Of a stretch of DNA of 64,000 nucleotides, positions 11,598 through 52,556 are shown piece after piece. The position numbers and the translations under genes are program-made. How positions within the stretch are numbered: the stretch's first letter is position 1; each line of letters begins with the position of its first letter. Source of the DNA: Isurus oxyrinchus (Eukaryota); contig JANJGN010000002.1 of assembly GCA_026770705.1 (NCBI GenBank), forward strand, positions 53,010,001 to 53,074,000, read 5' to 3'. The notes beneath the pieces were generated by a model. The model did not search any database. It saw nothing but the letters and a program-made list of their open reading frames with translations, and had not been told where the DNA came from.

Positions 11598-11727
11598 GCA
11601 AAAACAAAAATACTGCCGATGCTGGAAATCTGAAATAAGAAAAAAAATTGCTGAAAAAGTTCAGGTCAGGCAGCATGTGTGAAGAGAAAGAGCTAATCTT
11701 TCAGATCGATGACCTTTCATCAGAACT
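11598..11727 (-). mobile_element. Penelope 3'-terminal unit with hammerhead-like motif
   Basis: Homologous to 42025-42161; minus strand reads AGTT CTGATGA A AGGTC atc GATCT GAAAG ATT AGCT. Confidence 0.7.
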
Positions 11728-12237
11728 CAGATGCTTCTGCCATTGTCTCCAAGTGTGAACACCTTACACATTCTTTCCAGCAAAACAACCAACGTTTCCC
11801 TTTAATCTTTACCACATCACCTAGGCCTGTTGTTATGCAGACTTCAGATGAGGTGACATAACCCCCTTCATTTATCCTATTTTAAAGACACAGTCCCGAA
11901 ACATAATAATCTTATACATCTCATACTTGTAATAATAAATTGACTATTAACCTGTTTTAGAACACTATTCAGTAAACGTCACTAAAACTTTAGTCCCTGC
12001 AATAATTTTCCTAGTCACCTGGTGGCACTCAAGTATTTTCCATCGACCAGGCAGAGGTGACAGAAGCACAGCATTTGGCTTGAAACTTATCTGACCTATT
12101 CACCAGCAAGATCAGCCAGCTATATGAAAAGATTGTTTCTCAGTATATGGTCTTCCATAGGGCTAAAATGGTTAAAATAGCTCAACTATCACTATGTGTT
12201 AAATTGCCATCTTGATGTACAATGAAGGCAATTTTAA

Positions 12238-12340
12238 ACGAAACCAGAAAATGCTGGAAAAGCCCAGCAGGTCTGGCGGCATCTGTGGAGAAAGATAGGG
12301 AGTTAATGTTCAGAGTCTAATATGACTCTTCTTTGGAACT
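12238..12340 (-). mobile_element. Short Penelope-derived unit with 9-bp TSD
   Basis: CAATTTTAA flanks both sides (12229-12237 and 12341-12349). Inserted in the left end of an older palindromic MITE (about 12227-12523, centre ccattgaaatcaat, right end gtcaaaattacccc). Confidence 0.75.
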
Positions 12341-13464
12341 CAATTTTAATTTTAGTCACTTCAGCGATAACAAAAACATGCAACAAGGAACTGGCAACCC
12401 GTTTTATATCCCTTTCTATTTTTGCTGAATTCCATTGAAATCAATACAAATTAAAAGTTAAGATGTGAAACGGATTGCTAATTAGCTATCACCATTTTAC
12501 ACTACTGCAGTCAAAATTACCCCTGATTAGTCATTCATGTGTGTTAATTCAATTCCCTCAATAAATCAATGGATTTTCTGTCATATTCTGTCATATTCCA
12601 GAAGTCCAGCACGCATTCCAAATATAAACAGATGCATTCATTTATATAAAAAGGCCAGCCAGTCTAACAAGGAGGAACAAAGAACATAAAAATAATTAGA
12701 TGCAACTGTTCTTTTTTGAGCAGTGTTAGTGATAAGTAGACTTGTCCTCCCCAGCGCTTCAAAAATTATGTACCGTTCTTACAATGTCACAGTTAGCAAG
12801 TAACATACAAAGAAGCAATCATCTTGGTCAATAGTGCAGAGCATACAGTACACACGTAAAAACCACCTTATCACTCTCAAAATCTTAAGTTTATCACATT
12901 TAACAGGTTTTTTCCAAAATAACTTATTCAGTTTCCGTGGCATTATTTAAAAAAAAGGCATGAATGAGGCAACAATGCAACAGTCTGATGTCTCACAAGA
13001 AATTTTAGCAAACAGAGGGTTACAAAGAAAGAACACAGGCCGTGTCATCTACAACTTGATAATACAGCATATACAATGAATGTTAGAGGGGTCAACCAGA
13101 AACTTGAGCAGAAAATCTAGGCTGACGTCAATGCAGTGCTGAGGGAATGCTGCACTGTTGATGTTAAACCAATGCTCTACTTAATGTCATGTAATCCTTT
13201 TATACCCAAGAAATTATCAGAAGATTAGCAGGAGAGTTTCCCCACAGTGACGAGGTAGGGATTACTATTAGGATTGCTAAAATCTAATTGCTGGGTGATT
13301 GCTGGTAGACGATTAAACTGAGATTCATCTGGCCCCGATGAGACTAGATGAAGCAGAACAGGGGAACTGTCTTGGTACCCCACCTGACTTTTATCCTTTA
13401 AACACTGCCACCAGAAACATATCATCTGGTCGTTGAGTTTATTGATTTTTGTGGGATTATTAAA

Positions 13465-13990
13465 AAAAATTGAAGGGATGTTGGCATCGCTGGCTAGGCC
13501 AGCATTTATTGCCCATCCCTTGGAACGGTGATATATTTCTAAGTCAGGACAATGAGTGGCTTGGTGGGGGACTTCCAGTGCTGGTGTTCCCATGTGTTTG
13601 TTGCCCTCGTCCTTCCAGGCAATAGCAGATGTGGGTTTGGAAGATGCTGTCTAAGCAGCCTTGATGGGTTCTTGCAGTACATCTTGTAGATGCTACACAC
13701 AACTGCCACCTTTCATCAGTGGTGATGGGAGTGAATGTTTATGGATGGAGTCCCAATCAAGTGGGTGGCTTTGTCCTGGATGGTGTCAAGTTTCTCAAGT
13801 GTTGGAGCTGCACTCATCCAGGCAAGTGGAGAGTTTTCCATCACACTCCTGACTTGTGCCTTGTAGATGGTGGACAGCTTTGAGGCGTCAGGTGTGTTAC
13901 TCATCAAAGGATTCCTAGCCTCTGACCTGCTCTCATAGCCACAGTATTTATACAGCTAGTCCAGTTCAATTTCTGGTCAATGGTAATCTA
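13465..13990 (-). mobile_element. 3' fragment of second LINE family (same as 54290-55780)
   Basis: Peptide LSTIYKAQVRSVMENSPLAWMSAAPT; 3' tail gggatgggcaataaatgctggcctagccag shared with 55716-55745. Confidence 0.8.
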
Positions 13991-16067: not shown

Positions 16068-16183
16068 CTTAAAGAAATCTTCAAGCGGTTTGCTGTTATA
16101 CAAGGCTGGGATATTAGCAGAGAACTGTAGGAGGTCTTCAGCACATTGTCTTCTTTCTTCAATCACAGTCTCATCAAAACGAC
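16068..16183 (-). CDS. RPS6KC1: RPS6KC1 coding exon 4 (PX domain end)
   Basis: ttgcag|GT CGT...AAG|gtatat; 116 nt; (G)RFDETVIEERRQCAEDLLQFSANIPALYNSKPLEDFFK; phase matches exon 3. Confidence 0.95.
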
Positions 16184-16287
16184 CTGCAACCAAATATGTA
16201 GTTATCATATTTTTTCCTAGTTTTATTTCACCTATAATTATAATGACTGCCCATTTTCCTCTCATAGCATCAAACATTCAACAGAAA

Positions 16288-20288: not shown

Positions 20289-20440
20289 GAGGATGACCAA
20301 CTCTGGGAGAAAGAAGGAAGGGACTCTTGTTCAGGGGACAGGGGGAGTTATGCTGAAGAAAAACCGGAGAAATGGAAGAGATGCTGATGAGATGCAGGGT
20401 GGGTGGGCAGAGTGGTGAAAAGACCAGAGGAATGGTGGGT

Positions 20441-20472
<32 letters not shown>

Positions 20473-21116
20473 CGGGGGCGTTGTTGGCTGAAGATCACCA
20501 GCCCCAACAACCCTCCCTCTCAGGCATGGGCATGCCTACCCCCACCAACCCCTCTGGAGAGGTGACCGAAGCCCTCCAGCCCCCCAACCCGCTCACAGGA
20601 CTGCCCAGAGCCGCCACTTACATCTGTCCAGAGCTCTCCACCACCCCAAACCCTCAGGCCTGCCTGGAGCCCTCCACCCAACCTTCAGGCCTGCCAAACA
20701 CCTCTATCCTCCTCTCAGGTCTGCTGACAGCCCATCACCTCCCAACTCCCCCCTCCCGACTCCCACCCGCCGCAGGCCTGCCCAGATTCAACTCTTCTCA
20801 GGCCAGCTGGAAACCCCTGGGCCTGTTACAGACTCAACCCCTGGACTCGAGGCTCAGAGTGCTGCCACCGCTGGAACCCCCCCACTATCAGGAACCCCCC
20901 AATCACACCTGCCCAAAGCCAGGAAACTGTCAGAAAGAAGAGCGCCGGTCAGTACTGTTGCTCACTCGTGGCTGGCTCTGGAGACACACAGTCTCTTCAC
21001 TTGCTGCCAAAGGAATCCTGGAAAAATTCTGCCCCCAGAAGGCAATGCCCAGGATGCAGGACAGGAAGCCAAATTCCAGGACAATCTTGGAAAATCCAGG
21101 ATTGTTAGTCACCCTG
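20289..21116. mobile_element. hAT (Blackjack-like) non-autonomous element
   Basis: Degenerate TIRs GAGGATGACCAAC / GTTAGTCACCCTG (consensus-like CAGGGTGACCA); 8-bp TSD gttaaagt/gttactgt (6/8 match). Confidence 0.65.
20441..20472 (+). repeat. Poly-G homopolymer (32 nt)
   Basis: Read directly from the sequence. Confidence 0.9.
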
Positions 21117-24517: not shown

Positions 24518-26957
24518 ACTATTTCTATTTGTGGGTTCAACACCTTCTGGAATGGGTCTTTCAGAAATCTTTCCTCCCCACATATGTTTCAAATGTAGCC
24601 AACTGGTCCTCAAGCTCAGTTATTCCCTTGCTCAAAGAACACAACTTTTCAATGCTTCACGTGTGAACATTCATTCTGGAATTTCAACAGGTTCAGGATA
24701 TTTCAAATCTTACTTGTCACACAAATCATAAGAGCACCACTTGCTCGTCATTACTAAACTCAGTTTCTTTCCTCTCTAGATTTAAAATTAAAGAATTAAT
24801 TCTCACATATCTGCCTGGTCTTGCACTTGGTCTCAGTGCTTAACTTCTGTTCTCTCATGCAAAGCTCACAATCAGCACCTTACACAGTTGGCTTCTCACA
24901 ACTAACAGGTTTGTTACATAAAATAGATTTCTCATGGCAAATGGCTCAATGTTTGTGTTTGAACTGATGCTGACGTTCAATCTCGTTACAAGTCTAAGTG
25001 TGGTGCAAATCATACAATACTCCAACCAGGAAAGGAAAAAATTGGCAAAAATTAATTATATGCATTAAAGAAGGAATTGTTTGACTACTTGGATCCTAAC
25101 TGTTTCCATCAGCAACAGGAATTTCCCCCCAAAACGGTTTATGAACTATGGCCAATTATGGCCAACAGTTGACTGCTGGAAATTCAGAACCCACAAAGGC
25201 ATTGCTGGCAATTTTAGGGGCAGTCAACTCAAATGAAATCATTACTGTAAATCAATAATCAAATTGGTTGTTCTGGAATCAAATCACTGATTCCAACAAT
25301 GACATATAGCTCCTTTAATCCTTGAGGGACTGCATTTGGGTCACAAATGCAGTCGTTTAAAAAAAGGTTTGGAATTAGTCACAACTGATTGTGTGTTATT
25401 CACAATATTGCCCTTAAATTTTCTCAGTCAGGATACCACATTCAACTGAATATATGAAGCAGCACTATACTCAAATCTCAAAACTGGAGATATAAAATAT
25501 GGTCACAAACAACATTTATTAAAAGCTAAAGCTATCTTGTCAAGGCACATAATGTACTGAGCTTCTTAAAAACAAAAGCTGTGTATCATGGCAAATAAGC
25601 CAACCCAACATACAAGACAACCCTATTTTCACAGCCCCAGAAATTATATTTTTCATGTACTCAGCATATATGGCACACCTGCTTTCAGCTACAACATGCT
25701 ATACTCAGCAGTCAGTTTCAATTTTTCACTCCACAATTGCATGTTTTACTTACCTTATAACTGGGTGAAAGGATCAAGCAGGCGATAAGGGCTGTGTTGC
25801 AAAGCATTTGTTGCTATGGGGAATTTTGCATCAGATGCTAATGACTTTTCAAAATGGCAACCACTACACCCACACCGATGGTTCACTTTTATACTTGGCA
25901 TATAAGTCGACCCTGGTTTTTGAAGGGATTTTGGGGCTTCAAAGGTCGACATATGCCAACATTCATCCCAATAATAGGTTTTTCATCCATTCAGCCAAGC
26001 TCATCAATATCAGATAACGTTAATCAGTTTTTACACTAACCTGAAATGTGTCAATTTTTAAAACTGGCATTCTGCGGGTGAACAAATACGTTAAAGCAAT
26101 TTTAACTCGTAATTTCGCTGCATCAGTACATTATATTTAGTACAAAACAGAAGATGTGAACTGTGATAAATTGCTTTGTTCATTAATAAAGTTGCTTTGC
26201 AAGTTTTCTAATGATTATTCATTTCTGGAATTGGAATCACTATTGATTTATCAAAAGGAGAAAAGCATAAACCATCTCACTTAAGTAGGCTGTTGCACCC
26301 TTAAACCATAAATGAAGTATACTAAGATTTGATTATCATAGGATGCTGATTAATGATAATGCAGGCATACCAGTTACTGGGTCAAAGTGGGAAGACATTA
26401 GATTGAATGCAGCGCTGCAGCTTTCAAGTACAGTTCTCTCAAAGCACTGACACAATTGCAACAAACCACAAACTAGCAAAAGGGTGTTGAACCTGCAAGC
26501 AATGGTTATTTATCCTTCAAGTGGAAAAAATTAATGGGCAGATTAGATAAGAGAAAACATTACACCAAAACCGTAGTGTACTTCAAATTGTTACTTGGAA
26601 CCATTTCTACCTTACAACACTTTACCTTCGTTTAGGAAAATAGGTTTAAGTCAAGAATTCAAAACAATTAACAGCTATTCAAAAATCTTTATTTAAATTA
26701 GAAAGACGGAGGGGGAAAAAAGGAAGTTACAATGTGACTTTGAACAGTACAACTTACACAATCCTTTATTTAAGCACAAAACTATTTTTTATAATGGATA
26801 CATACAGTGTCTTGGAACACTATGTATGGCCTCATTCATTCTATTGGTTTATTATTGAACACTATGATCGCATTGATCTGACTTTAATTAAATTTTCAGA
26901 CCAAGCAAGTGGGAATTGATTTTTGTATCTTAAACATTAGCAGTCATTACAACGATG

Positions 26958-27560
26958 ATAAAAACAAAAAACTGCGGATGCTGGAAATCCAAAACAAAAA
27001 CAGAATTACCTGGAAAAACTCAGCAGGCCTGGCAGCATCGGCGGAGAAGAATCAAGTTGACTTTTTGAGTCCTCATGACCCTTCAACAGAACTAAGTAAA
27101 AATAGGAGAGGGGTGAAATATAAGCTGGATTAAGGTGGTGGGGGGGAGGTGGGGGGAGAGAAGTTGGGGGGGTGGTTGTAGGGACAAGCAAGCAGTGTTG
27201 GGGGAAGATAATCAAAAGATGTCACAGACAAAAGAACAAAGAGGTGTTGAAGGTGGTGATATTATCTAAAAGAATGCTAATTAAGAATGGATTGCAGGAC
27301 ACGCAAGGTACAGCTCTAGTGGGAGTGGGATGAAATAAGACTAAAAGGGCATAAAAGGTATAGATTTAAAAATAAAGGAAATAGGTGGGAAAAGAAAAAT
27401 CTATATAAATTATTGGAAAAAACAAAAGGGAGGGGGAAGAAACGGAAAGGGGGTGGGGATGGAGGAGGGAGTTCAAGGTCTAAAGTTGTTGAACTCAATA
27501 TTCAGTCTGGAAAGCTGTAAAGTGCCTAGTCAGAAGATGAGGTGCTGTTCCTCCAGTTGG
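26958..27560 (-). mobile_element. Penelope-like element 3' fragment
   Basis: End of GIY-YIG ORF (EEQHLIF...LGTLQ...LNIEFNNFR-like, about 27478-27558), 3' UTR and degenerate hammerhead at about 27052-27093; parallels 42025-42640. Confidence 0.85.
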
Positions 27561-29767
27561 ATGATGGTGGAGGAGCAATTGAAAGACTAAAGATCACCTT
27601 GAATAAAGCTGCTATTACCATTTTTGTTACTGACAAAAACATTCATCAGAATTTCTGCATATATAGCAGACTACTCAGCAAGGCGAAAAAAGCAGATTTC
27701 AAGCATGATGGAGACAAAGTGGACGAAACAAACACAAACAACAGAAGCAAGAAATATAAAGAAATATAGAAAATAAAGGCAAGTTGGAGGTAAAGGAAAT
27801 TTTATAAGTCATTAAAAAGAAACAGAACATCACTTACTTTAGTCTCATAAATTAATACAGCTCTACCATTAAGCAATTAGAGGTCTATTTTAAAGCATAA
27901 GAAAGCTAGCATTCAGCCCATCTACAGTTTCTTTCACAAACAATGAATTTTTTTTTAAAGTAGGTTCTCAGGATGTGGGCATCAATACCAAAACAAACAT
28001 ATATCGCCCATCCTTCTCAGTGATCTGCCCCATAATTACAGTGATGTTGTTTCATTATGTATTTTACATTTATTTTGTCTCAGCAACAAGCTAATCAATT
28101 TGTGAGAGCTGAAACAAACACAAAGTATAAACAGCCATACATTGGGAGCTTGCTGGCTATATTTGGCCAGTGGCTGGTCTTGATTGAATAAGTCACTGGC
28201 CACCAGTGATTACAGTGCCAAAGAGAGACGAATGCCTTCAAAGAAATGACAAGCAAACTCTCAAGAAACACCAAGCTCTCAGTCATGAAATTTGCTCAGC
28301 AAGCCACCTCTCACTTGATCGTCTTAGCCTTTAAGGGGGAATATAGCAGCATGACCAAGCTTTGAGAACTTTTATTAAAATTTTACATTAAATACAAATA
28401 AGCAAGAAGCCTGTCTGCCACACGTTATAACATTATAAAGATGCCTTGTTACAAATGTTGAATGGCCAAAAAGTATATGACAAACAGCACTGGAGCCATT
28501 ACACAACACTGCTTGCTGCCACTGGTGACAGGAAAGACATCTGATAAGGGACCATTCTGCATCACGCTAGCTATCATGTCATTATGAAATGAATGGATGA
28601 CCCTGGTCATCTTTTCAGGGCAGCCATATTTGTACAGGCCTTTGTTTTACTGTAGCAAAGGCCTGCATGTCAATGAACACCATGTCAAGGTCCTTGTTCT
28701 GTTTGCGGGACTGAGAGTGACAATTGTAAGAATTCTTCCCACTGAGGAGAGAAGTGAAATAGCACAATAATTTCTCAATAGACTTGCTTCCTTTTTGCTT
28801 GTACGGTTCAGAACAGACAACAATCTCTTCAATCTGCAAAAGCTGAAGGCTTGCACAAAGATCACAGAACAGTTATTAAGTGAACTCTTGTTTGCTGAAT
28901 ACCGTCTTCTCAATAGCACGTATACCAGAGGACATTGAGCTGCTCATTGACTGCTTTGCCCAAGCCTCAGAATACGTCTTATGCTCTGAGGCTTGGGCAA
29001 GGCAGTCAATGAGCAATAAGTCTGAAAATGACAAAGATTTTGTACCAATCAGTCCCTGACCACAAAACGCCAACAACCCATAGTCATAATCAACAATGCA
29101 CCTTGCAGCTAACTTCAGAATTTCTGCTATCTCCTGGGAGTATCCTTTCCAACAACACCACGTTGGATGATTAAATTGTCCATCATCTGGCAAAAGCAAG
29201 CTTAGGATTCAGCAGGCTCAACCACGGGGTTTGAAGCGAGCATGGAGCTTTAATCTCAAAAAACAAAGATCAAATTCTACCAGGCAGTGGTTCACACATC
29301 ATTTCTCTACGGTTGTGAGGAAGAGATAACCTACATCGGTATCACAAAGCAACTAGATGCATTCCAACTTCGCTGCTTAAGATTCATCTGCAACATCAAG
29401 TGGCAGGGTTGCAATGTGTTGCAGACCTGGTATTGAGAGCATGCTCGTTAGAGCTCAGCTTCACTGGGTCAGCCATGTGGTTCACATGGAGGATTTCAGC
29501 ATACCAAAGGCGGTGTCATGAAGAGATATTAATGCCTATAATGTTATTGGAAATTATTTTTAAATTGGACTTGTGGTTGGGTCTGTGTCTGTGTGTGTGT
29601 TTGCATGTGGTTTAACTGGATTAAAGCCAGCTAGGCTGGGTGCTGTGAAGCATAGTAGTTTTGAGATGTTAGATAAACAAAGGAGAAAAAGATAAAGTGT
29701 ACATTGCATTTGTTGAATAAAGCATTCAAGAGTGGGAGTAAAATTTAGCTGGGAGTCACTAAGCAAT

Positions 29768-30537: not shown

Positions 30538-30544
<7 letters not shown>

Positions 30545-30584
<40 letters not shown>

Positions 30585-33639: not shown

Positions 33640-34630
33640 ATATGCAGCTCTACCTCACCTCCACCTATTTTATTCCCTCCAGTCTCACATCTAAATTTAC
33701 TCCAGCTAAATATTGGAAAGAAGGCAGCCATTGTCTTTGGTTCCTGTTACAAACTGAGTTTCCTTGATACTAACTCCATCCCTCTCCCTGACAACCACCT
33801 GAACCAAACTGCTATATTTGAAACAAAAACAGAAAATGCTGGAAATATTCAGCAAGTCTGACAGCATCTGTGGAGAGAGAAACAGAGTTAACGTTTTGAT
33901 TCTGTATGACCCTTCCCTTCTGAAGAACGGTCATACAGACTTGAAATGTTAACCCTGTTTCTCACTCCACAGATGCTGCTAGACCTGCTGAGTTTTTGCA
34001 GCATTTTCTGTTTTTGTTTCAGATTTCCAGCATCTGCAGTATTTTGCTTTTATCTTTGCTCTATTTGGCCCCAAGATGAGCTCCAGCTACACAAACCACA
34101 CTAAAATGACCTATTTCCACCTCCATAACACCACACAGCTTTGCCTTGCCTCAGCTTTTCTGCCGCTGAATCCCTCGTTCATGTCTTTGACTATTCCAAC
34201 ACATTTGGCCTCCATAGTTCTACACTCCACAAACTGGAGGTCAAAGTGTGAATGACTCTGTGCCAATAATAAACTTTTTGGGTTTCCAAGTTCAGGAAAC
34301 TCCAAAGAATGGGAGCCTGATCCCTCTGCATTCTGGTTTCAGCTCAAGCACTAGCTCTGGATTCCACACTTATAGCCCCAGCTGAGATCTTTGCGCTCTG
34401 CCAATTCTGGCCTCTTTAGCATTCTGATTTTAATTGCATCACCATGGGTAGCCATTGCCAAGGCCCTAAACTCTGAAATTCCCTTCCTAAATCTTTCCAG
34501 TTCTCTCTCTTTCCTCCTTCAGGATGCTCCTTAATATCTACCTCTTTGCCCAAGATTTTGGTCATCTGGCTGAATATTTGTTTATGCAATTCAGTGTTAA
34601 ATTTTGTTTCATACTGCAGTATTTATATAG
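33640..34630 (+). mobile_element. L2 LINE fragment
   Basis: cagctctacctc, cagctaaatattggaaag, tatttccacctccataac and an L2 3' tail (aagattttggtcatctg); split by the Penelope hairpin. Confidence 0.75.
33821..34056. mobile_element. Inverted pair of Penelope terminal units (about 200-bp hairpin)
   Basis: 33821-33915 is the imperfect reverse complement of 33925-34020; flanked by tgctatatttg / tgctctatttg (TSD-like). Confidence 0.85.
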
Positions 34631-35284: not shown

Positions 35285-35750
35285 CCATAGATCCACAGAA
35301 AAGTTACAGTGCAGAAAGAGGCCTTTCAGCCCATCATGTCTGCACCAGCCAAAAAAAAGAGAAAAAAAGAAAAATACTGCAGATGCTAGAAATCGGAAAT
35401 AGAAACAGAAAATGATGGAAACACTGAGCAGGACTAATAGCAGCCAATGGAGAGAGAAACAGAGTTAACGTTCCAAGCCTGTATGATTCTTCTTCAGAGC
35501 ACAGAGCACTAGCAGCTCATTTTAATCCCACCTTCCAACACCTGGTCCGTGGCCTTGCAGGTTACAACACTTCAGGTGCAGATCCAGGTACCTTTTAAAT
35601 GAGTTGAGCATTTCAACCTCAACCATCAATTAAGACAGTGAATTCCAGACGCCCACCACCCTCTGGGTGAAAAAGTTTTTTCCTCATGTCCCCTCTAATC
35701 CTCCTATCAATCATCTTAAATCTGTGACCCTTGGTAACTGACTCCTCATG
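35285..35750 (-). mobile_element. CR1-type 3' fragment interrupted by a Penelope terminal unit (about 35370-35500)
   Basis: gaattccagacgcccaccaccctctgggtgaaaaag matches the CR1 tail; a similar fragment lies at about 32975-33210. Confidence 0.7.
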
Positions 35751-37039: not shown

Positions 37040-38200
37040 AGAACAAAATAGAAATTACAGAACTGAAATAGGCCATTCAGCACAATTGGTTTATTCCAGT
37101 TTGTATGCTGTACTTAAGCCTGGCCCAAACCTACTACATCTAGCCGCACAAGCAGATCCTTCTATTTCTTCCTTCCCCATGTACTTTTTTAGCTTCCTCT
37201 CAAACACATCTATGCTATTTGTCTCAACTACTCCATGTGATAGTAAGTTCAACATAAATACTCTTATTATAAAGCAGTTTCTCCTGAATTTTTTTTTGAA
37301 TTTATATTTCTGACGCCTAGTTTAAAACTTCTACATCTAACCTATCAAACCCCTTCATAATTTTAAAGACATCTATTAGGTCACCCCTGGCCTGAAGAAA
37401 ATAGCCCCACCTTGTCCAGTCTTTCATGATAGTTATAATCTCTCAGTTCTCGTGTCATCTTGTGAATATTTTATACAACTTCACCAATGTCTCTATATCT
37501 GTTTTATAACATGGAGAACAGAAATGTGCACAGTATTCCAAAGGTTATCTAACCAAGGTTCTATATAAATTTAATATAATTTTTCTGCTTTTGAATTCTA
37601 TAACTCTAGCAATGAGCCACAGGGCTTTGCTTGCAATTTTTATAGCTTTGTTAACCTGCATTGCTACTTTAACAACTTGTGAATTTGTATACTTGGATTC
37701 CTTTGTCCTCTACCCCATATAAATTCCAATTTTCCTAGGAGTTTGAGGCCTCCTTATTCTTCCAACTAAGTTGCACCACCTCACACTTGTCAATATTAAA
37801 ATTTGTTTTGTCGAAGTTCTGTCAAAGGGTCATGAGGACTCGAAATGTCAACTCTTTTCTTCTCCACCAATGCTGCCAGACCTGCTGAGTTTTTCCAGGT
37901 AATTCTGTTTTTGTTTTTGTTTTAAAATTTGTTTGTCAATTACACAACCAATCTTCATGGTTATTAATGTCTTGTATTTTGTTGCAGTCTTCCTCAGTAT
38001 TAACCATACCCCTCAACCTAGTGTAACCTGCAAATTTTGAAATTAGATTTGATTCCAGAGTCAGATTCTTTATATATATATATATACATATAAGGTGAAC
38101 AATGGCATTGATTCCTGTAGAATACCATTTCCCATGTTCTACCAGTCTAAGTGACTAACTTTGTTTTGTAGCCTGCTTTCTATCCGTTCTGCTACTGTGT
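37040..38200 (-). mobile_element. Old degenerate CR1 fragment
   Basis: gaaatgtgcacagtattccaaaggttatctaaccaagg (LVRPHLEYCAQF-like on minus) and gtgtaacctgcaaat (FADDT-like). Confidence 0.65.
37813..37922 (+). mobile_element. Short Penelope-derived unit with about 15-bp TSD
   Basis: taaaatttgttttgtc (37797-37812) / taaaatttgtttgtc (37923-37937); starts at the hammerhead-like motif. Confidence 0.8.
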
Positions 38201-38460: not shown

Positions 38461-38581
38461 CAAAAACTTTTCCTTTAGCAAAAGGTGGAAATAATTCTGG
38501 ATGCCTGTATAAAGATTTATGAAGCTGCCAGAGCTCTTTGTGAAGTTTCTTAAAATCACTGTAACGTTTCCAAACTACTAT
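38461..38581 (-). CDS. RPS6KC1: RPS6KC1 coding exon 3 (PX domain core)
   Basis: tttcag|ATA...TTT G|gtaagg; 121 nt; IVVWKRYSDFKKLHKELWQLHKSLYRHPELFPPFAKGKVF(G), containing the PX RYSDF motif. Confidence 0.95.
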
Positions 38582-40830: not shown

Positions 40831-42024
40831 ATGTCCGCTTAATAGTGACTACATTAAGTGATGAATAAGCCTAAATTTATTCTTTTAACGCCATTGATGA
40901 ACATGTACAACCCCATTTTTTCTTCTATTGTACATTACTTTAGATTAAATTTTACACAGAAATATATCACGAGAAACTCACCTACATATTTTTAGATCTT
41001 TGACCACCTCCATGGATTCAACTTACACCTCCCCATTCCCCCACAATCCCTTAACCATGATTAAGCCCCAATGATTTATAAAGCTTACAATTTTTATGGA
41101 ACAGGAAAATTCCTGATAAAAGTCTGAGTGAAGTCTGACAAACAGCCACAGAGGATCTTAGATCCGAAGCTATATTATTGAACATATAAATTATATTTTT
41201 CAACAAGATGAGACTAACTGTCAAGGAATAAGGCTCATTGGAATTGGGACAGCAAAATGCAGTCAGAATAATTTTATTGGTCCTTCAGGACCCAGTTAAA
41301 GTCCCACAATGATGATGCTTCTTACACCAATGCCTGGGATCGTGTGAAAGCTTTATCTGCTCAACTAGTGGAAACCTAAAGAATGCTGGTCATCATCACA
41401 TTGCTGTTTTGAATTTTTGCTGAGCACAAATTAGCCGCCTTCCTTCCTACATTACAACAGAGACTATACTTCAAAAAGTACTTTGCTGGCTGCAAAGCAC
41501 GTCAAGATGACCGGCGGTCATGAAAAGCGCTATATAAATGCAATTCTTTCTTTTAATATTCAAATTGATCATAAATTGGTCAAGTTTAAAGAAAATGGAT
41601 GAAGATTGTACGGATATATACAAGTTGATCAGAGACAATTAATTTCAGCAAATATATTAGGAGTTTCATCTATCTTGTAATCAAATTTATAAATAACTGG
41701 AAATTAGGGACATGCTGACTTTTCTTTGCAGAAGTCAGCAACCATTCAATTTCACAGAATTATGGAAATAAACTCTAATTTCTTAGAAAGAGCATACGAG
41801 GTGCCCAATACATCAGAGATGAATTAAGGGGTACAAAGAACATAGATGATTTGAGAACAAAATTTCCAGAATTTAAGTAAAATGCAGTACAATTATCTAA
41901 CAATATAATGACTTGAACAAGTCATCTTAATATAATGCGCCAACATTATGCCCAAGTAGGCTGGCAAGAATGAAATACCGGAAGAGAGGATAACATTTAA
42001 GGCTTGATGTGAACAGGAATTTGA

Positions 42025-43022
42025 TAAAAGCAAAATACTGCAGATGCTGGAAATATGAAACAAAAACAAAAATTGCTGGAAAAACTCAGCTGGTCTGACA
42101 GCATCTGTGGAGAGAAAGACAGAGTTAACGTTTCAAGTTCGTATGACTCTTCTTCAGAACTAAAGAGAAGTAAAAATGTGGTGAAATATATACTGTTGGG
42201 GGGGGGGGGGTACGACAGGTGAAGCTGGATAGAAGGCCAGCGATAGGTGGAAGCAAAGGAGAGTTTGCGAAAAATGTCATAAAGGTCAAAGGGGTGTTGA
42301 TGGTGTGATACTGGCGGTGCTAATGGCGACATTAATAGTAGAAAGCAGGATGAGCAAGTGACAGATGGGGGTGGGGTGGGGGGGAGGGGACGGTGTGGAA
42401 GAAAAGATCAAAATAGGCTAAAAGGTGGGGATAAAACAATGAATGGAAATAAATTTTTAAAATAATCATAGAAATAGGTGAGAAAAAAACACATGTAAGA
42501 ATTTAAAAATCAATATTTGAAAAAAGGGGATCAAAAAGGGCCAAGGATGGAGGAGAGAGTTCATGATCTGAAGTTGTTGAACTCAATATTAAGTCCGGAA
42601 GGCTGTAAAGTGCCTAGTCGGAAGATGAAGTGTTGTTCCTCCAGTTTGCGTTGAGCTTCACTGGAACATTGCTGCAGGCCAAGGACGGACATGTGGGAAT
42701 GAGAGCAGGGTGGTATGTTGAAATGGCAAGTGACAGGAAGGGCTGGGTCATGCTTGCGGACAGACCGAAGATGTTCAGCAAAATGGTCATCCAATCTGTG
42801 TTTAGTCTCTCCAATGTAGAGGAGGCTACATTTGGAGCAGCGAATGCAGTGGATCAAATTGAGGAAAGTGCAAGTGAAACGTTGCTTCACTTGAAAGGAG
42901 TGTTTGGGCCCTTTTGAGGGGGGGGTAAAGGGGCAGGTGTTGCACCTTCTGCGATTACATGGGAAGGTGCCATGGAAGGGGATTGAGGTGTTGGGGGTGA
43001 TGGAGGAGTGACCAGGTTGTCC
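42025..43022 (-). mobile_element. Penelope-like element 3' part with GIY-YIG endonuclease ORF
   Basis: ORF 42561-42890 NLIHCIRCSKCSLLYIGETKHRL..HFAEH...HFN...EEQHFIFRLGTLQPSGLN is the PLE-type GIY-YIG domain. Confidence 0.92.
42122..42161 (-). ncRNA. Minimal hammerhead ribozyme motif (PLE type)
   Basis: Minus strand AGUU-CUGAAGA-A-GAGUC auac GAACUU-GAAAC-GUU-AACU: stem I AGUU/AACU, both conserved core boxes, imperfect stem II, loopless palindromic stem III. Confidence 0.7.
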
Positions 43023-44287
43023 CCTTTGGTATTCTCTTAGGCAGTCTCCCTTTTGGAAAGCAGTAACAAATGCAATGGCCCAGAGTTTGCAGTAATAATG
43101 AGGTCAAAGCTGTCAGCCTTCGTCATCATTACTCCTCTGAAACTGACAGCAACACTGGAGTCCCTACATGTGTACCATCAGCGAATCTACAATTCTCCAT
43201 TGTGTGCTACTGAAATCTCTGCAGACTGTCACCAATTAGAAATCACTGAACTGATGAGCACCCGCTCTTTTATGTTATTTGTCTTGCTCATTGAATGATA
43301 TGTAACTGGGTTTTTAAGTTCATAATTACTGTGGAAGAACATCTCTGGGCCCAAAAAATTAATTTTATATTTGTGCACTATCAAATTTCTCCTTGTAATA
43401 AAAAATAAACATTTTTTTCTTAAATTACAATGTTTCAGCTTCTAGCTTAAACTATGTGTATGCCCCATTTATTTCAGTCTTTGCAAAATTTAATTCAAAG
43501 TGAAAGATAATCTGGACATTTTGCTTCCATCCTCCTGCTGTTAGAATACTTCAATGTGATTGGCTGTTTGCCCTGCTTGATGATATCACTCTTGCTTGGC
43601 ACAAAGAGATCCCCTTAGCACCAAATTCAAACAAATGCAAGGAAAGGGGAAATCCATGCCACAGAGATGGCCTTGGTAGCTTTCTTCGAGCTCAGCAGCA
43701 AGTGCCTTTGCTTCACCGACCTCATATCAAGGGCTACAGCAAGAAGAAACATGGATACAAAAGTATGTATTCAGTGCCAAATCTACTGAATGTTCTGGAA
43801 ATGTCACGTACTCACAGAATGAGTTGGTACATGTTTGTGCCAGTATATGACATGCTGCTACTGAGAATCATTACATTGTTAACTGCTTCTTAGTGGGAAA
43901 ATACATTAGAAAATAATCATTTTGAACAATTGTTTTTCACAGGCAAGAAGAAACTAAATGTACTACACCAAATTTGGGGAGGGCTCATGAAATCCCTTGT
44001 TGTCTGGTAAATTATGGTCCTTTGTACTGTAAACTAGAGGAGACAGTTGTTATTCTCCTTCCAGCTGCACACACAAAATACCAAATTGCCATGGTCCCAA
44101 GTTTTCATTATTCCCACCCCCAAATACAATCAAAATTATTCTTAGTTTGTTCATATATCAAAATCAATTGTTATTTCTAATCTTATGTGCAGAATCATTC
44201 CAGAAAATAAGCCACATTAGATGTTTAAAATACTATCAGCTACAATATCTAACTCAGCAGCACAGTCAATGTTCGATAGCTCATTAC

Positions 44288-44323: not shown

Positions 44324-44640
44324 CTAGTTTAAAAAAAAACATATTAATGAATCTGAAAGACGTCATATATCCAGTAAATTACTAAATATCAATTAAGAAC
44401 ATCCAATTACAAATCACACGTTGTTCAAAATACATTATTAGTCTCACAACATGGTGCATTACAGCACCACCTCATCTGGGTGAACATGTTCAATTGCAGA
44501 CAGACAAAATTCATTTTAACCCAGCTGCAGGAATTAAACAAGCATCTTCTGGATTGAAGCATTGTGAATGACGTAATGCTGTAATACAGTGACACGGAAA
44601 GGCCAATGCAAAGTAACCAATATACTAGGCAGCACCAAGT

Positions 44641-44740
44641 GCTCTGAAGAAGGGTCATAAAGACTCGAAACGCTAACTCTGTTTCTCTCTCCACAGATGT
44701 TGTCAGACCTGCTGAGTTGTTCCAGCGTTTTCTGTTTTTA
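44641..44740 (+). mobile_element. Penelope terminal unit with hammerhead-like motif in RPS6KC1 intron 1
   Basis: CTGAAGA A GGGTC ataaa GACTC GAAAC GCT AACTC; the cleavage triplet is mutated (GCU). Confidence 0.75.
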
Positions 44741-44899
44741 TTAATGCTTATCACAACAGTTTGAAATACACCGAACCTCTAGCACCTGATACTACCAATT
44801 GTTGGAACAATAAACTAGTGGATCGCGTAACTTCCATGAGTAATTTGACAGATTTTTTTTTGTGTGGGGCAGTAATATGACATGCTTGTCTACTGACAG

Positions 44900-45390
44900 T
44901 GGCTGGGCTGCTGTTCGCTCTCACTCTTACAGCTTGCAAGATGCACGCTCTCCCAGGGCCCGTGTTGTAATTGTCCCGGGCGCGTTCTCTTTTGGAACCC
45001 GGGTAAGCCCAGCGGTGCCTGGCCCGGCTCGAGCCCAGCCCAGCCCAGCCCAGGCACCCTGCCGGGTTGTCTCAACTGCAAACATCTTTCCACGCACACA
45101 CAAAGCACCAAGACAGCTGGCTGCACTGGAACCCCTTCCATCCCTATGCTCAAAGGATGGACTCACCCGTGCCGTCACTTTATAAACCGTGTAGCCTTTC
45201 CTGTGTCTCTTCGGATCGGTTATCGTGTAAAAGCGAGCCAGCTCCCCTTTGTTTCTCTGTGATAACATGATCTGTCAACCCCTAACCGCAGCGTCTGTAT
45301 TTAAGGTACTGTCTCCCTTTTTACATCATTTCCTCATTCACTTATCCCCGCCACCTACTTCCTGTACGTCTGTTCTGAGGTCTTCCCCCT
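44900..45390 (-). promoter_or_regulatory. CpG-rich promoter/first-exon region of RPS6KC1
   Basis: Locally high GC and CpG around exon 1; GC box CCCCGCC near 45346 and ETS-like ACTTCCTG near 45357 upstream of the ATG; (GCCCA)4 tract at about 45032-45053 in intron 1. Confidence 0.6.
45167..45268 (-). CDS. RPS6KC1: RPS6KC1 coding exon 1 (start of PX domain)
   Basis: ATG at 45268 gives MLSQRNKGELARFYTITDPKRHRKGYTVYKVTAR, closely resembling the vertebrate RPS6KC1 N-terminus (LARFYTVTEPQRHPRGYTVYKVTAR). 102 nt, phase-0 donor CGG|gtgagt, in CpG-rich sequence. Confidence 0.95.
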
Positions 45391-45985
45391 TGTCCTTTGA
45401 TTTCATGTAGAGAGGAGTTTGCATTATTATTGTTCCATGTGGTGTGTAAAATGGCTACTCCTCTCCCCCCAACCTTTAATTATATAAAATTACATCAGAG
45501 GTCACATGAATATGGCAAGCCACAATATACAAAGGTATTCATCCAAACATCCTACTTTTCACAAAAAGATAAAATATATCATGCTCTATCGTTTGCAAGT
45601 TAGTCAACATGCATAGACCATAAAGAAAATTATGACACATGAACAAAAAACTGTTTGCTCTTTCTAATCTGTTCCAATTTCATCTGCCCCTACACATGCA
45701 TTGCACAATTGGGGCAGAATTTTCTGTTCTGGAGACTAAGGGCAGTGGTGGGCAGAATAATCAGCTTGTTTCCCGCTAGGCAGTGGGGCAATTCTCGCTC
45801 TCGATTGTAAGCTTGGAACCTCATTAAGTATACACTGGCAAGCCGCTCTCCGAATCACATGGCAGGGCGTGCACTGATTCATCCGCCCAACCTTAAGGAC
45901 CTGAAGGTATTGGTGACATATATGAATGCCACCCAGACACATATATTCACTCTCTGCAGCACAACTGTGTGGTGTCCACTCACTA

Positions 45986-46580
45986 TGATGGCCCCTAGGA
46001 GAAGGAAGCCCTGCATCCCAACATTCAGCCATGACTCCTTGGTGGCTCTACTGAATGCCGTCCACAAACGTCGTGATGTCCTATTCCTGAGGGATGAAAC
46101 CAGGAGGTCCACCACCCTCACCTCGCCAGCCTGGCAGTATGTCGCCATGGAGGTCAATGCCATTAGGACGCAAAAAGAAATGCTCCGTCAGGGTAAGTCA
46201 ACCTTCTGCTCACTCTGGACTCACTCTCACAATGGTATCAGGCACTCTAAGGGTTAAACTCCACAGGCATCTCACACACTTATAGCGGATGGGACTTCAG
46301 CACTGAATGTCTCACACACACTTTAACATCACCACCATCTCATGTGATATCCTGCGCAAACGGCATCTTCAGCCCTTAATGGAGAGGGCTCAGCACACAC
46401 AGCAGGCATGCATGCTTCCCAACTTCTCCAACTATTCACATCACATTCCATCCATCTTTCTTCATGCAGGCCAAGCTACCCCACAACAGGCAGGAGAGAT
46501 CCCAGACAGGAAGAGGGACGCCTGAAATCCAGAAGCTCACTCCCTTTGAGGAGAATGCTGCCGAATTGGCAGAGATCGCT
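45986..46580 (+). pseudogene. Harbinger Myb/SANT-like (MSANTD/NAIF1-type) ORF relic, two exons
   Basis: PTFSHDSLVALLNAVHKRRDVLF...AWQYVAMEVNA, donor gtaagt at 46193, acceptor catgcag| at 46469, then AKLPHNRQERSQTGRGTPEIQKLTPFEENAAELA. The exon phases disagree, implying a deletion. Confidence 0.75.
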
Positions 46581-47483: not shown

Positions 47484-50400
47484 TAGATTAAGCTCGGGGT
47501 CATTTTCTGACGAGCACCTCACTGACATGTCTCTGTGACAGTCAGACGCAGTCACTGACAGCCCAGGTCTCCGGCACTCAGAGGACTGCTGGAGAACAGG
47601 CACCTTCTGAGTCCAAGTAAGATGATGAGCCTCTGAAAACGGCTGTTGCTAACATGCTGGAAATGCAAAGACAAGCGGTGGAACATCAGGCAGAACGCGA
47701 GAGGCAGTCAACAGACTAGAACAAAGCATAAAGGAGTCTGATTGTGTTCTTTCTGATGTCATGGCTCTGACATGTGAACGCCTCAAAGTCACCATGGGAA
47801 GGGTGGTGGCTGCCTTGGAGACCCTGATCCAGCAGGTTCTGCCAGATTTGCACTTGGGCCTGCACACCACCACTCTAGGCATAGGTGGGATACATCAGTG
47901 TCTAGGCGAGATGGGTCGGGGCATCTCAAACTTCTTCGAGGTTTGCTTTCTCCTCAAGAAGTCAGGTAGGGGCCCTCGAGCACCCAGATGGAGGAGGACC
48001 ATCAGCTGGATACCCAGGTCCACCTACCCAGCAGACTCCAAGAATGTCCAGCTGCTCCCAATTCCTTCAATCTGTGACCCCATCAGCTCCAGCTGCACAG
48101 GCCGAGGAGGGTTAGAAAAATTAAGTACTGAGAACACAATAGTGGCTTGGGCATTCACTCACCGTGTATATCATGCACCTTTGTAAAAACAGTTTGATTT
48201 CATGATAATGGTTTCAGCATGTGAATGCCTCTTGCATATAAATTGATGTGCCTTCTTATTGCAAGGATGGCTCAGCTCCCACTCCACAATTGCTTCCTTT
48301 TGAATCCCTCGGATCCATGATGTTTTGCAGACTCATGTCAGTCACTCGCCCCTTAAATCATGTAAGAGAGTGTCGAGCCATATCCTGAAAGTGAATGTAC
48401 ATTGAGATTTGATCCTTTAAACCTTGCAACACATGTGTGCTCATGTGTCTTGGAGAGTTAAATCTAATGTTGTGTCATTAACAGTGAGCAGTGTTTGTTG
48501 TGAGTGTGAAAGCACATGCCCTGTAGCCATTATGGTCTCTGAAATTGTCTCCTTCAGGTGTCAATGACTGCAATATGTGAAGTTGATGCAGAGTGCGTGT
48601 TGGTGTGCTGTCTTTCACCTCACACACCAGCTATAAGCAGCTTTGGGTGCTGACCTTTCCAAGAACAATCCTTGAGGATTACAAGTCCAAGGCCGAATGC
48701 TGACCTTGCTTCCAATGTCACTACTTGTATAGGCCTTTCCGATCAATGGCATTGTGCTAAGGGACTGGAGAAATGTGCTTGGGTCCCCTTGACTGGACCT
48801 AACTCCTGTTTGAACCTTGAGGCTATCAGTATATCATGGGCACATCTTCCCCATCATGTCACTGCGATTTCATCCTTCCATGGAAGCTGACCATCATCGC
48901 CCTCCTCAGGTTCCTGCCCTTCCAAGTCCTCATCAACATCGGGCCCTTCTTCTCCTCCTCAGTGTGAGCACTGCCATCAAGAAGGTAACATTGACCACAA
49001 CCTCCAGTCTGCAATCCTCCTTCTTCCTGTGGACGGATAGATCAAAGGCATGAATGTAGCTTACCGTACAATTACAGACCTCCCACTCCAAGCCAGAAAG
49101 CCAATGTCATGACCTTAGGCTGTGGTTGCACTACCTGCCTTTCCCTGTTCCACCCTTATAGATGAGGCACTCCCTCACTGATCGTAGGTACCCCAACAAA
49201 TTGACATCTCAATCTCATATAGGATGGAAGAGGATTGAGCACAGCCATGTAATCTTGAGCCTCACTAAAGGCACTCATATAATGCCTGATTTGGAATTGA
49301 GGTTACCCCTGCCTTGCATCTTTAGAATGATTGGAAGCCTTGTGCCCTCTGACCTATGTCACATGGACAATGCAGTTTGCAGGGTTTGATGGAGCTTCTT
49401 GCATACATCCAGCAGCTGTGCTCCCTTAATGATTGGCCGCCTCTCCCCTTCTCACATTCCTCTGATGGTGAAATGCTCAGTGAGACCACCTCTAATGTGA
49501 TCCCATTGCATAGTGTAGTCTCATGTAAAAGTGCACCATGAGTTACTGGTTCCAACTCTAACATTTCAATAAAGTCTTATATGAGATTGCCCCTTGAAAG
49601 GGTCCCACAGTCCAGCCATGGACTCCTCCCATCCCTCATTTTTTAACTCCATCAGTGATTCAGGTCCTCAACATGGTGGTGCTGCATTTCTACTTCCAGA
49701 CCATGTTCAACCCTCCCCCTGTCACCATTCACATCCCTCTGATCCTCCTGGAACCCCACGATGTGTAGGTAGACCTCCCTCCAGTCACTCTCCAGCCTCC
49801 ACTAGTAACCATGGAGCCTATTGTGATTGCTGCGGACATTCTTGCCCTGCCCACTGAACTCATCACTGTGGATATCCCCAAGTCCCATGTGAACCTCACC
49901 CCTCCCCATCTTGAGGCCACCTGAATGGTCATCTTCAGAGACACACCCCTCCTCCCCGTCACCACCAGAGTTTTGAAGCACCCCACCACCTCCACCCCAC
50001 CCCGAACACCCACTTTGTTACATTTTCTCTATTTAGAGGCTGCAGATGCTGCCTTGGACCATGATTATTCCATCTGTTGCCTAGTATTGAGCTAACCACT
50101 CCCAGGACCACCAAGTGTGAGACAATGACCACACCTGCATACCAAGCTGTGCTTGACCCCCAGGTCTTGCTCCTCCCTGGACCAGGACCACACTGTACGT
50201 GCAATGAATAACCCTGCAGCATGGCCCACAAAGCCCCAGGACTGCCTTTAATCTGTTGCCACGAGCATTTGGTCTCAGCCCCAGGACTATGACACTGATA
50301 CTTATTCCCCACTTCCTTCAGAACTGCCCCACACCCCAGTCTGGAATCTGCGTGCACCCCCTCGATGTCATGCTCCAGCTCTCCCACCCCCGTCACCTCA

Positions 50401-51146
50401 CTGTCTGCCATTCCACACCCCTTATTCCTAGTACCCCCCCCAGCACCTCCTCTGCCCCAGTCATCCCTCTGCCTGCCCTCCCCCCCTCCCTCCCATGTTC
50501 CCTTCACTCTCCTTTGTGCCTATTCCCACACCCCGCACCCCTACTTCCCCATTCTCATTCTGGTCTTTGCTGGTAGACTGCAGCCCTGCCTGTGCCCTGC
50601 AGCACCCAATATGTGCAGTCCTGCCTGCGCCTCACAGCACAACAGAGAACTATTTAGTGCAGTCAAAGACCACGTTGATGGAATGGTTGATAGTTAAATG
50701 CTGCAGAAAGCTCTGACAGCATAACTGTCTCCAACAAAAGAGAATCTAACCATTGCCCCTTGACATTCAATGGCATTACCATTGCTAAATCCCCTGCTAT
50801 CAACATCCTGGGGGTTACCATTGACCAGAAACTGAACTGGACTAGCCATATAAATACTGTGGCTACAAGAGCAGGTCAGAGGTAGGAATCCTGTGGCGAG
50901 TAAGTCACCGCCTGATTCCCCAAAGCCTGTCTACCATCTACAAGGCACAGGTAAGAGTATGATGGAATATATGGTGCTCCACAGCACCACTACTGACTGA
51001 GCTGGCCAAGTCCTAAAGGACATAGCTGCTAGACTGGGTCTGTGGCAGGTGGCAAGGGAAAAACATACTTGACCTCATTCTCACCAACCTGCCGGTAGGA
51101 GTGACCACTGCTAAGTCCTTGTGGAGACAAAGTCCCATCTTCACAT

Positions 51147-52556
51147 TGTTTTGATCCCTGATGAGGCTACTCCTGGACAAGCCTGATCCCAAAGTGGAAC
51201 CCAGCCTGATAGATCCTAACTTTTAATTTGTTTGTTTAGATACGTGGAAAGTGGCTACTGAACAGAGTCACCAGAGTCAGCTAATGAACTTTTAATGAAA
51301 GAATAAAACATTATTAAATAAGAGAAAGATGAACTATATTACAATACTTCTTCACCCACAACTATACTTTTACAGATATATACTGATTTGTAAGGAAAAC
51401 ACAAGTTACAAAAGCTATCTTATACTTTAACGTTCACAGTAAATACACAGTCCATGTAAACTAATAGGCACAGACATACCACATGCTGAAACTATGTTAC
51501 AGATGCCACCTCAACCAGATGCTATGGAATTCCCCTCAGCTCCCACTCCACAGACACTTGTCACACCATGAGCCAACCGGTCTCACTGAACTCCATCTTT
51601 CACATGAGAGCTTCCAATCTCCATTTTCCAAGAACTCGCCTTGAAATCTTCTCCCAAACTGACACTTTCTCACAGATACCTTTCGCAAGGGTTCATCTCC
51701 AGGGTTTCGAACTCTCCTTCCGATGTTCCTCTTTCTGGGTCGCCAATTCAGCCATCAACAATACCATTGCCCTTTACATGCCCAGAGCAAAGAGTTACAG
51801 ACCTTCAGTTGTCTCTTTGGACCTTCTTATCTCTTGCAAACTGTTCTCACTTTAAATCTGCTTTCTGCAGCTTGGAGCTTTAAATCTGAAGCTTGAAGCC
51901 TTTCTATTTGCCCTCACTATTAACTTTAGCAGGACCTTTTCCAGGTTCCTATCCTTCCTTTTGTCCAAAGGTCTGCTTGGGACTTCCTTCTGTTCCACTC
52001 CCATAGATTTTGGGGTCTTTTCATTAGCTTGGGACTGGCTATCTATCCCCTTTTAGGCTGCTTCTCTGGCAGCTATCTTCAAAATCTGCTGAACTCCAAC
52101 AGCTTTCAAAACAAACTGCTGTTTCTAGCTTTTCTGTGTGTGTGTCTGTGGGAGAGACCTGCCCCTCAGGACCCCATTGCTAGGCAACAGCCCAATTCTT
52201 CTGAAGAAGAGTCAAACGGACTCGAAACATTAATTCCATCTTTGTCACTGCAGATGCTGTCAGACCTGCTGAGTTTTTCCAGCAATTTTTGTTTTTGTTT
52301 ATGATTTCCAGCATCCACAGTATTTTGCTTTTAGCCCAAGTCTTCTAATCTTGTTTGTCTACCTTAGCTGCAACAGCCATAAAAAACCTCATCAGAAATG
52401 TAGGCACTTTTTGAAAGTGAAACTAAAACTCAATTTGACCTTTCTTAACACAATGATACAGAAATACAAATCAAACCTAAACTTTAAAACTAAAATTAAT
52501 TCCTAACGCCTACAAATACCGATGTAACTTATTTAAACTATATCTATTTCTTAACA
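51147..52556. mobile_element. Solo LTR (about 1.4 kb)
   Basis: TGTT...AACA termini; 4-bp TSD acat/acac; removing it restores LINE continuity (tcacat-tgaggatacc). Confidence 0.8.
52196..52332 (+). mobile_element. Short Penelope-derived unit with TSD, nested in LTR
   Basis: agcccaa flanks both sides (52189-52195 and 52333-52339), extendable to agcccaa(t/g)tcttct; CTGAAGA A GAGTC aaacg GACTC GAAAC ATT. Confidence 0.8.

Follow-up and report, generated by a model that had tools for sequence, protein, structure and literature searches.

What self-cleaving RNA motifs might be doing inside a protein-coding gene is the question raised by a 64,000-nt stretch of the shark Isurus oxyrinchus genome (GenBank assembly GCA_026770705.1, contig JANJGN010000002.1, positions 53,010,001 to 53,074,000 of the forward strand; hereafter the window), along which copies of a minimal hammerhead ribozyme motif are scattered. 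We consider it probable that these minimal hammerheads, which belong to the pseudo-long terminal repeat (pLTR) of one lineage of Penelope-like elements (PLEs), are decaying inserts copied from uncut leaders that likely do not cut host RNA, while the master line of the element, now carrying a changed nucleotide at core position 6 (A6U), keeps transposing. The finding in the window is by itself ordinary, a known motif in dead copies; it gains relevance from the element that supplied them, given that the role of the PLE hammerhead has been described as an open question (PMC8557442) and cutting as unnecessary in vitro (PMC11167929).

Results

A profile search of the window with nhmmer returned 11 copies of the repeat, and none in reversed-sequence controls. 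All nine motif positions listed in an earlier note on this DNA are copies of that one repeat, on the strand given there, and its estimate of about nine copies stands for those nine but misses two more, at 33814-33916(-) and 7400-7481(+). The motif formula offered with them is idealised, as an exact CTGANGA...GAAAC is present in 3/9 copies and all 11 invariant core bases in 4/9, the copy at 42122 being the sole one of the nine that combines an intact core with the CG palindrome and passes the strict minimal-hammerhead descriptor. Stem II pairing is indeed kept, with 4-5 of 5 pairs in every one of the nine, and stem I has 4/4 pairs in five copies and 2/4 in the other four. PLE body sequence upstream of the motif survives in two copies only (27052 and 42122), the remaining seven beginning at the hammerhead, and the nine are decayed leftovers, mostly 100-140-nt leader pieces of one PLE lineage. 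The U found at position 6 of the copies at 27052 and 37815 is not a product of decay, since their subfamily (the U6 branch) has it as its master state. The Rfam search that had been proposed as a check returned no hammerhead match in the window at E<=5, nor any at E<=10 at four loci with intact motifs; since even intact motifs escape them, the Rfam covariance models are blind to this minimal form.

The attribution of the motifs to Penelope 3' ends tells half the story, in that the motif does lie in a PLE but the majority of copies are pieces of the 5' leader that stand by themselves. Intact tandem units of 3,340-3,353 nt (about 3.35 kb), identical at 3338/3339 aligned bases, each hold a frame of 918 amino acids (locus L191) that matches RVT_1 (E 7e-8) and, below the Pfam cut-off, GIY-YIG (E 9e-4); homologs of this protein bear the same reverse transcriptase (RT) and GIY-YIG families, the closest named one being from a Chiloscyllium shark (69% identity). 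There is one motif per unit, between frames, 420 nt past the stop codon and 170 nt ahead of the next start. The element displays partial tandems, inverted 5' copies and an optional 30-40-nt tail, all hallmarks of PLEs, and its protein contains a CX4CX2C linker; as a CX2-5CXXC linker before the endonuclease defines Neptune and Nematis (PMC8557442), it is likely an endonuclease-bearing PLE of Neptune or Nematis type. An extra A after A9 and the 15.2/16.2 CG palindrome occur in all subfamily patterns, and the proposed identity, a minimal type-I PLE hammerhead with extra A and loopless palindromic stem III, agrees with the description by Cervera and De la Pena 2014.

Subfamilies were defined on an alignment of 135 nhmmer hits and on trees made without the hammerhead, the first of them with 56 rows, some misaligned, and a clean one with 41/180 loci in which family C is absent. 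They form a ladder in the order C, A(CUGAAGA), A(CUGAUGA), B0(CUGUUGA) and B(CUGUCGA). Subfamily C combines CUGAUGA with an AGGUC/GACCU stem II and a 3-nt loop (105 exact genome matches); subfamily A has GAGUC or GGGUC/GACUC in stem II, with CUGAAGA (3,672 exact matches) or CUGAUGA (637); B0 couples CUGUUGA with GUU (6,297 exact matches), and B couples CUGUCGA with GUC (57,585 identical 35-mers), reversed-pattern controls being 0 for all exact subfamily patterns. Mean divergence from the column majority of each group falls along the ladder, from 9.7 through 7.1 and 5.2 to 1.7% for A(CUGAAGA), A(CUGAUGA), B0 and B, respectively (36 rows). The canonical core CUGANGA / GAAA / UH is thus kept in subfamilies C and A and broken in B0 and B by U at position 6, so that the CUGANGA core assumed for the whole family overlooks a non-canonical youngest subfamily, and the youngest branch is a variant of the minimal hammerhead rather than a plain member.

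In the clean tree the U6 rows as a single clade are not rejected (p-AU 0.40), the base of these rows being unresolved. A6 in a B context is found in 112 copies as against 57,585 with U6; those A6 copies that were examined branch from within the U6 rows, which makes U6 the master state of the B branch. The core of the master line went from CUGAUGA through CUGUUGA to CUGUCGA with the rest of core and stems almost fixed, and the near-identical tandem units with an intact frame indicate that this line is still active. Because the same master line passed from the canonical to the A6U state and remained active, it offers a common background in which to compare the two. A loose two-box pattern matched 112,147 U6 sites genome-wide (control 1,188) and 17,524 A6 sites (control 733), and the strict descriptor found 0 canonical and 28 U6 motifs in one sampled Mb (100 evenly spaced 10-kb stretches from contigs C1-C28), where a U3-A8 descriptor had 0 matches; canonical descriptors would overlook about 6/7 of the two-box copies in this shark genome. 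A6U is predicted to reduce cleavage. That it triggered a burst of copying is not borne out, as the 107 copies with a motif comprise 57 of the B branch, 36 of A and 14 of C; A and C copies also being numerous, amplification took place both before and after the change. Elsewhere in the core, CCAAAGA is common to four copies (window 12300-12340(-), L079, L123 and L135), and C at position 4 has 136 matches genome-wide across several backgrounds, which is compatible with sporadic transitions but might also reflect a small U4C subfamily.

Decay of the inserted copies was assessed by comparing core with tail in families A and B, 28/135 hits having been dropped for gaps. Non-CpG changes in family A affect 39/334 core and 181/1797 tail positions (p=0.38), and all 13 core and stem III bases are kept in 3/36 copies; the corresponding figures for the B branch are 7/487 and 80/2849 (p=0.09), with 35/56 copies intact. 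Inserted copies of family A would therefore seem to decay without detectable selection, family B being borderline. The master line shows another pattern: from A to B, 99/265 sites of the 3' untranslated region (UTR) changed as against 3/31 in core and stems (p=0.001), and from B0 to B, that is, after A6U, 62/295 sites of the 3' UTR changed (21%), with 0/12 in the remaining core and 1/18 in the stems, an A-U to G-U replacement. This single pair-preserving change among 30 core and stem positions contrasts with the 3' UTR (p=0.015), whereas the tolerant positions (loop II, N7, H17) changed at 4/8 (p=0.004).

Covariation in the stems is sparse. Two neighbouring stem II pairs were swapped between subfamilies C and A, which amounts to a single event, and a pair count in a 19-row alignment gave 96.8% paired for stem II and 80.3% for stem I, with one pair showing two-sided change; its pairing score was equalled by 11/500 shuffles, 10/19 rows had been chosen by patterns that force stem II, and relatedness alone could suffice. 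A stem I C-A mismatch is present in part of family A. When isolated motifs from six loci were folded, stem II formed with P 0.86-1.0 and stem I with P 0.0-0.68; the core is often predicted to be engaged by the strand of stem III in an inactive helix, inclusion of downstream sequence removes most of stem I, and no minimum among the predicted dimer folds of the six loci corresponds to the active form. In the youngest family, GGACTCGAAA and CAACTCTTT lie just upstream of the hammerhead too (L191:5530-5560), duplicating parts of its 3' half; in read-through RNA they could act as competitors in the pairing of stem II or stem I.

The ends of the copies bear on how they were made. Offsets are given from C3 = 0, with the cut after +30, and 5' ends were counted in copies at least 90% identical to a reference. 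Most genomic copies measure 100-140 nt and run from the 5' edge of the motif to either of two tail sites, their 3' ends clustering at +93..+104 and +130..+138, some 35 nt apart. Whereas 5' ends fall at -11..+3 in 25/41 short copies of the unbiased Mb and in 51/97 non-central copies from other loci, they fall at the cut site (+29..+33) in 0/41 and 1/97 (1/138 pooled), and this near absence of cut-site starts implies that the templates were likely uncut leaders. The pile-up at the motif 5' edge lends genomic support to internal priming on RNA that has not been cut, and it points to the hammerhead as the earliest part of the element to be transcribed. In long copies of A, B0 and B, TATAAAT/TATATTT lies 28-32 nt ahead of the A of AGYU, the spacer diverging. 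Target-site duplications of at least 8 nt flank 16/38 solo copies as compared to 8/295 mismatched control pairs, for which reason we regard the solo pieces as direct insertions; the window copies 12300, 37815 and 52197 have duplications of 9-15 nt. An inverted partner lies within 130 nt of 71/109 short B-branch copies (pooled over all loci), and a 200-nt perfect palindrome at L163:362-570 probably represents the fold-back junction between a pair of PLE copies in inverted orientation. Contigs from four sequencing runs, whose RNA status is a guess for three, contain the leader and no other letter at position 6. In the young-family leader at L191:5563-5733 there are also two upstream frames, both short, one opening with an AUG at +13 within loop II and the other with an AUG at +51, along with a donor-like CAG/GTAATT site gained in the B branch.

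The motifs do lie inside a protein-coding gene, as had been proposed: eight of the nine are intronic in a PX-domain gene on the minus strand of the window, whose best PDB match is sorting nexin-15 and which we take to be of SNX15/RPS6KC1 type, and the copy at 52197 lies upstream of the first coding exon. The PX exons were detected by Pfam on 345/365 listed frames (low-complexity or already scanned frames omitted); a splice-site scan of the window did not detect them. Five of the eight intronic copies are sense and three antisense, or six and three with the tenth copy, the weak eleventh being excluded. The density of copies gives the gene no special standing, since the sampled Mb holds 116 (bootstrap 0.92-1.45 per 10 kb), by extrapolation some 0.5-0.7 million in the 4.98-Gb assembly, and the 11 copies in the window compare with 7.4 expected (P=0.13). 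Local enrichment in the host gene was accordingly rejected in favour of the genome average, and the dense spread of self-cleaving motifs through the gene asserted in the earlier note is not sustained. Coordinates of copies and host exons are collected in Table 1.

Table 1. Element copies and host exons in the window (positions of the 64,000-nt stretch)
Feature	Coordinates	Strand	Details
Weak, very old eleventh copy	7400..7481	+	nhmmer E 5e-4
Candidate further host exon	4177..4236	-	strong splice sites only
Solo PLE leader piece, oldest subfamily C	11598..11729	-	hammerhead 11690-11727; stem II AGGUC/GACCU type, 3-nt loop; 11 core bases intact; stem III palindrome lost
Solo leader piece, subfamily A	12223..12343	-	hammerhead 12300-12340, 4 core changes; 9-nt target-site duplication
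Host exon, PX profile 44-82, approximate bounds	16068..16183	-	best PDB match sorting nexin-15, E 7e-10
5'-truncated PLE, U6 (B) branch	26950..27566	-	aligns to reference copy in separate pieces; hammerhead 27055-27093, inherited A6U and G12A
Tenth copy, inverted partner of 33917 copy	33814..33916	-	begins inside hammerhead; lacks CUGA
Leader piece, subfamily A, head-to-head with 33814 copy	33917..34054	+	core intact; 15.2/16.2 is UG; stem I 2/4
Solo leader piece, subfamily A	35365..35501	-	A13G
Solo leader piece, U6 (B) branch	37813..37925	+	inherited A6U and G8A; target-site duplication of about 13-15 nt
Host exon, PX profile 7-38, approximate bounds	38461..38581	-	best PDB match sorting nexin-15, E 6e-12
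5'-truncated PLE, subfamily A	42020..43023	-	end of GIY-YIG endonuclease frame (stop-to-stop 42561-43103), 3' UTR, TATA-like box, hammerhead 42123-42161, full tail
Solo leader piece, subfamily A	44640..44753	+	host gene intron 1, antisense; U16.1C
Probable first coding exon, host PX-domain gene	45167..45268	-	ATG at 45268, GT donor after 34 codons; exon call inferred
Solo leader piece, subfamily A	52197..52333	+	upstream of host first coding exon; core intact, palindrome lost; 13-nt target-site duplication, 1 mismatch

Remnants of other elements share the window. Broken reverse-transcriptase frames of other long interspersed nuclear element (LINE)-type elements, presumably CR1/L2, occur at 21836-23235(+), 54803-55213(+) and 58731-59129(-), with RVT_1 matches at two of them. 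A Myb/SANT-like frame at 45811-46257(+) (E 3e-4), some 550 nt upstream of the host gene as counted from its first coding exon, and a DDE_Tnp_4 frame at 60515-61115(-) (E 9e-7) are likely Harbinger-type DNA transposon remnants, and a weak rve integrase-core match at 56690-56968(-) (E 0.005, below cut-off) is a possible remnant of a long terminal repeat element. Rfam miRNA-like matches were set aside as inverted repeats; a 75-nt near-perfect inverted repeat at 28941-29015 with sub-threshold miRNA-family matches is probably a small transposon remnant. Simple sequence includes a 42-nt G run (20437-20478) and an 18-copy TG repeat (30545-30580). At another locus, a 284-amino-acid open frame beside a hammerhead copy (L057:1779-2630(+)) ends in a cysteine pattern that, judged by eye, resembles the TGF-beta family.

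Discussion

The short copies may be accounted for by assuming that transcription, driven by a TATA-like promoter, sets in at or near the first bases of stem I and that the element protein primes reverse transcription at internal tail sites, as an anole PLE does in vitro; priming at the 5' tail copy would then run off the end of the uncut RNA and leave hammerhead-plus-tail inserts, which after insertion would decay without detectable selection. A6U would weaken cleavage, and the element would keep transposing because cutting is either weak, under regulation or dispensable, the fold itself remaining in use.

A number of observations weigh against this account. The 5' edge is not a single base but a spread over -11..+3 that tails inward, the oldest subfamily, C, lacks a TATA-like match at the distance seen in the others, and a pyrimidine-rich YAG just before stem I resembles a 3' splice site, as is also the case in Penelope of D. 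virilis. The RNA runs, being contigs, cannot show transcription starts or expression level, and cut RNAs might be destroyed and hence leave no copies. As regards selection, young B copies have slightly fewer core than tail changes, after A6U the 12 positions of the core show no significant conservation when considered by themselves (0/12, p=0.13), and the tail equals the hammerhead in conservation (3/44 vs 1/30, p=0.64).

Among the alternatives, the U6 motif might be a working ribozyme that cuts as a dimer or with the PLE protein, removing a capped 35-nt 5' end or freeing unit-length RNA, with A6U tolerated as a rate-tuning change. We find this doubtful. The changes that followed A6U all fall at tolerant or pair-keeping positions, the triplet going from GUU to GUC; the AUG at +13 precedes the cut site; cutting by the anole PLE hammerhead requires the presence of protein (PMC11167929), and a natural A6C hammerhead has low but detectable activity (PMC3088659). 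Set against this are the copies themselves, which almost never start at the cut site, the predicted folds, with the core held in an inactive helix and stem I mostly lost, and a saturation screen in which other single mutants of the CUGA turn were all low (PMC9901934).

Conversely, the hammerhead might be dead in the young branch and its sequence persist through overlap with promoter elements or a protein-binding leader, perhaps by way of an alternative helix between core and stem III. That the tail is conserved to the same degree is what such overlap would lead one to expect, U7C and U17C in the youngest family each turn a G-U into a G-C pair of the predicted alternative helix, Naiad PLEs proliferate without canonical hammerheads (PMC8557442), and the D. 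virilis Penelope promoter is internal (PMC2377424). This explanation nevertheless seems rather unlikely to us, as the changes spare the positions a hammerhead requires and concentrate in loop II, N7 and H17, and the case for the alternative helix is built on two changes.

Less probable still is that the 5' edge of the short copies marks a 3' splice site or other processing site instead of a transcription start. A pyrimidine tract with AG precedes stem I in all subfamilies, and the D. virilis Penelope intron ends at helix I (PMC4209133); the short copies, however, share no common upstream exon, many retain the AG together with as many as about 10 further bases, the distance to the TATA-like box persists although the spacer sequence diverges, and the RNA contigs aligned to L191:5480-6300, a stretch that begins only 80 nt upstream, contain no splice joint. 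Finally, the view of the earlier note that the intronic copies are active self-cleaving RNAs acting on the host transcript is very improbable: for all that most are intronic, that five are sense, that the sense copy 42122 has core and palindrome intact and that hammerhead-plus-tail sequence is abundant in the RNA-like assemblies, density is average, old copies lose the core as fast as the tail, sense copies are not depleted, one in nine is intact and the window offers no intact dimer partner, so that the intronic copies likely do not cut the RNA of the host gene.

We therefore return to the decaying inserts of uncut leaders and ask what the master line implies. We tentatively propose, with rather less than even confidence, that an uncompensated A6U in the invariant CUGA turn was fixed in a vertebrate retrotransposon and then carried into more than 100,000 copies while selection kept the remaining fold at the 5' end of the mRNA, leaving either a protein-assisted A6U ribozyme, which few hammerhead variants of any genome would rival in abundance, or a ribozyme on its way to becoming a non-catalytic leader structure. 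On this reading, the dated subfamily ladder supplies matched A6 and U6 forms with which to probe the purpose of the PLE hammerhead.

The older part of the ladder finds its counterpart in the minimal hammerheads of metazoan PLEs (PMC4209133), with which it shares the pLTR location, type I topology, CUGANGA with an extra base, the 15.2/16.2 CG palindrome, a GUU or GUC triplet, a short stem I, G10.1-C11.1 (in subfamilies A and B) and the occurrence of mostly dispersed singles with some opposite-strand pairs; to judge from sequence, subfamilies C and A belong to this known class, in which single motifs do not cleave and dimers show low cleavage. Subfamily C departs from it in a stem II closed by A-U, and the 17,524 canonical and 112,147 U6 two-box matches in the shark compare with about 9,000 descriptor hits in Xenopus, obtained by different criteria. 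A term search of part of the supplementary alignment of that work yielded no shark row or U6 core. More broadly, a literature search by title and abstract found no earlier shark PLE hammerhead or A6U core, although Luense et al. 2017, Repbase/Dfam or the supplements of bioRxiv 10.64898/2026.07.22.740005 may hold one.

With respect to the manner of insertion, the closest parallel is the Anolis Poseidon PAc (Frangieh et al. 2024, PMC11167929), in which in vitro priming is internal, uncut RNA is the dominant template, core mutants still insert and the tail is tied to two internal priming sites. Both elements have the hammerhead at the junction of pLTR and open reading frame, two tail end-points about 35 nt apart and no ends at the cut site, whereas the shark element differs in a long frame that starts 170 nt after C3 and not inside stem II, in its CX4CX2C linker and in its young A6U core. 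The Penelope pLTRs of Adineta vaga (PMC3846280) likewise have a TATA box with initiator-like sequence, a tail (31 bp there), solo pLTRs and target-site duplications (8-9 bp there), but several of their solo pLTRs lack duplications of the kind found here in 16/38 pieces. Non-LTR retrozymes (bioRxiv 10.64898/2026.07.22.740005, a survey with one chondrichthyan sampled) resemble the shark pieces in being short, non-coding, hammerhead-bearing derivatives of PLEs in vertebrates; the latter are solo or head-to-head and track the subfamilies of an autonomous element instead of forming head-to-tail arrays, none of which Tandem Repeats Finder detected in the window. As for the core itself, the natural variants on record include U3-A8, U15.1-A16.1 and the A6C of phage Bcep176 (Perreault et al. 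2011, PMC3088659), and the last resembles the young shark branch in that its core is complete apart from position 6; the shark variant, known here from sequence alone, is by contrast A6U, fixed in a master element and amplified more than 100,000 times.

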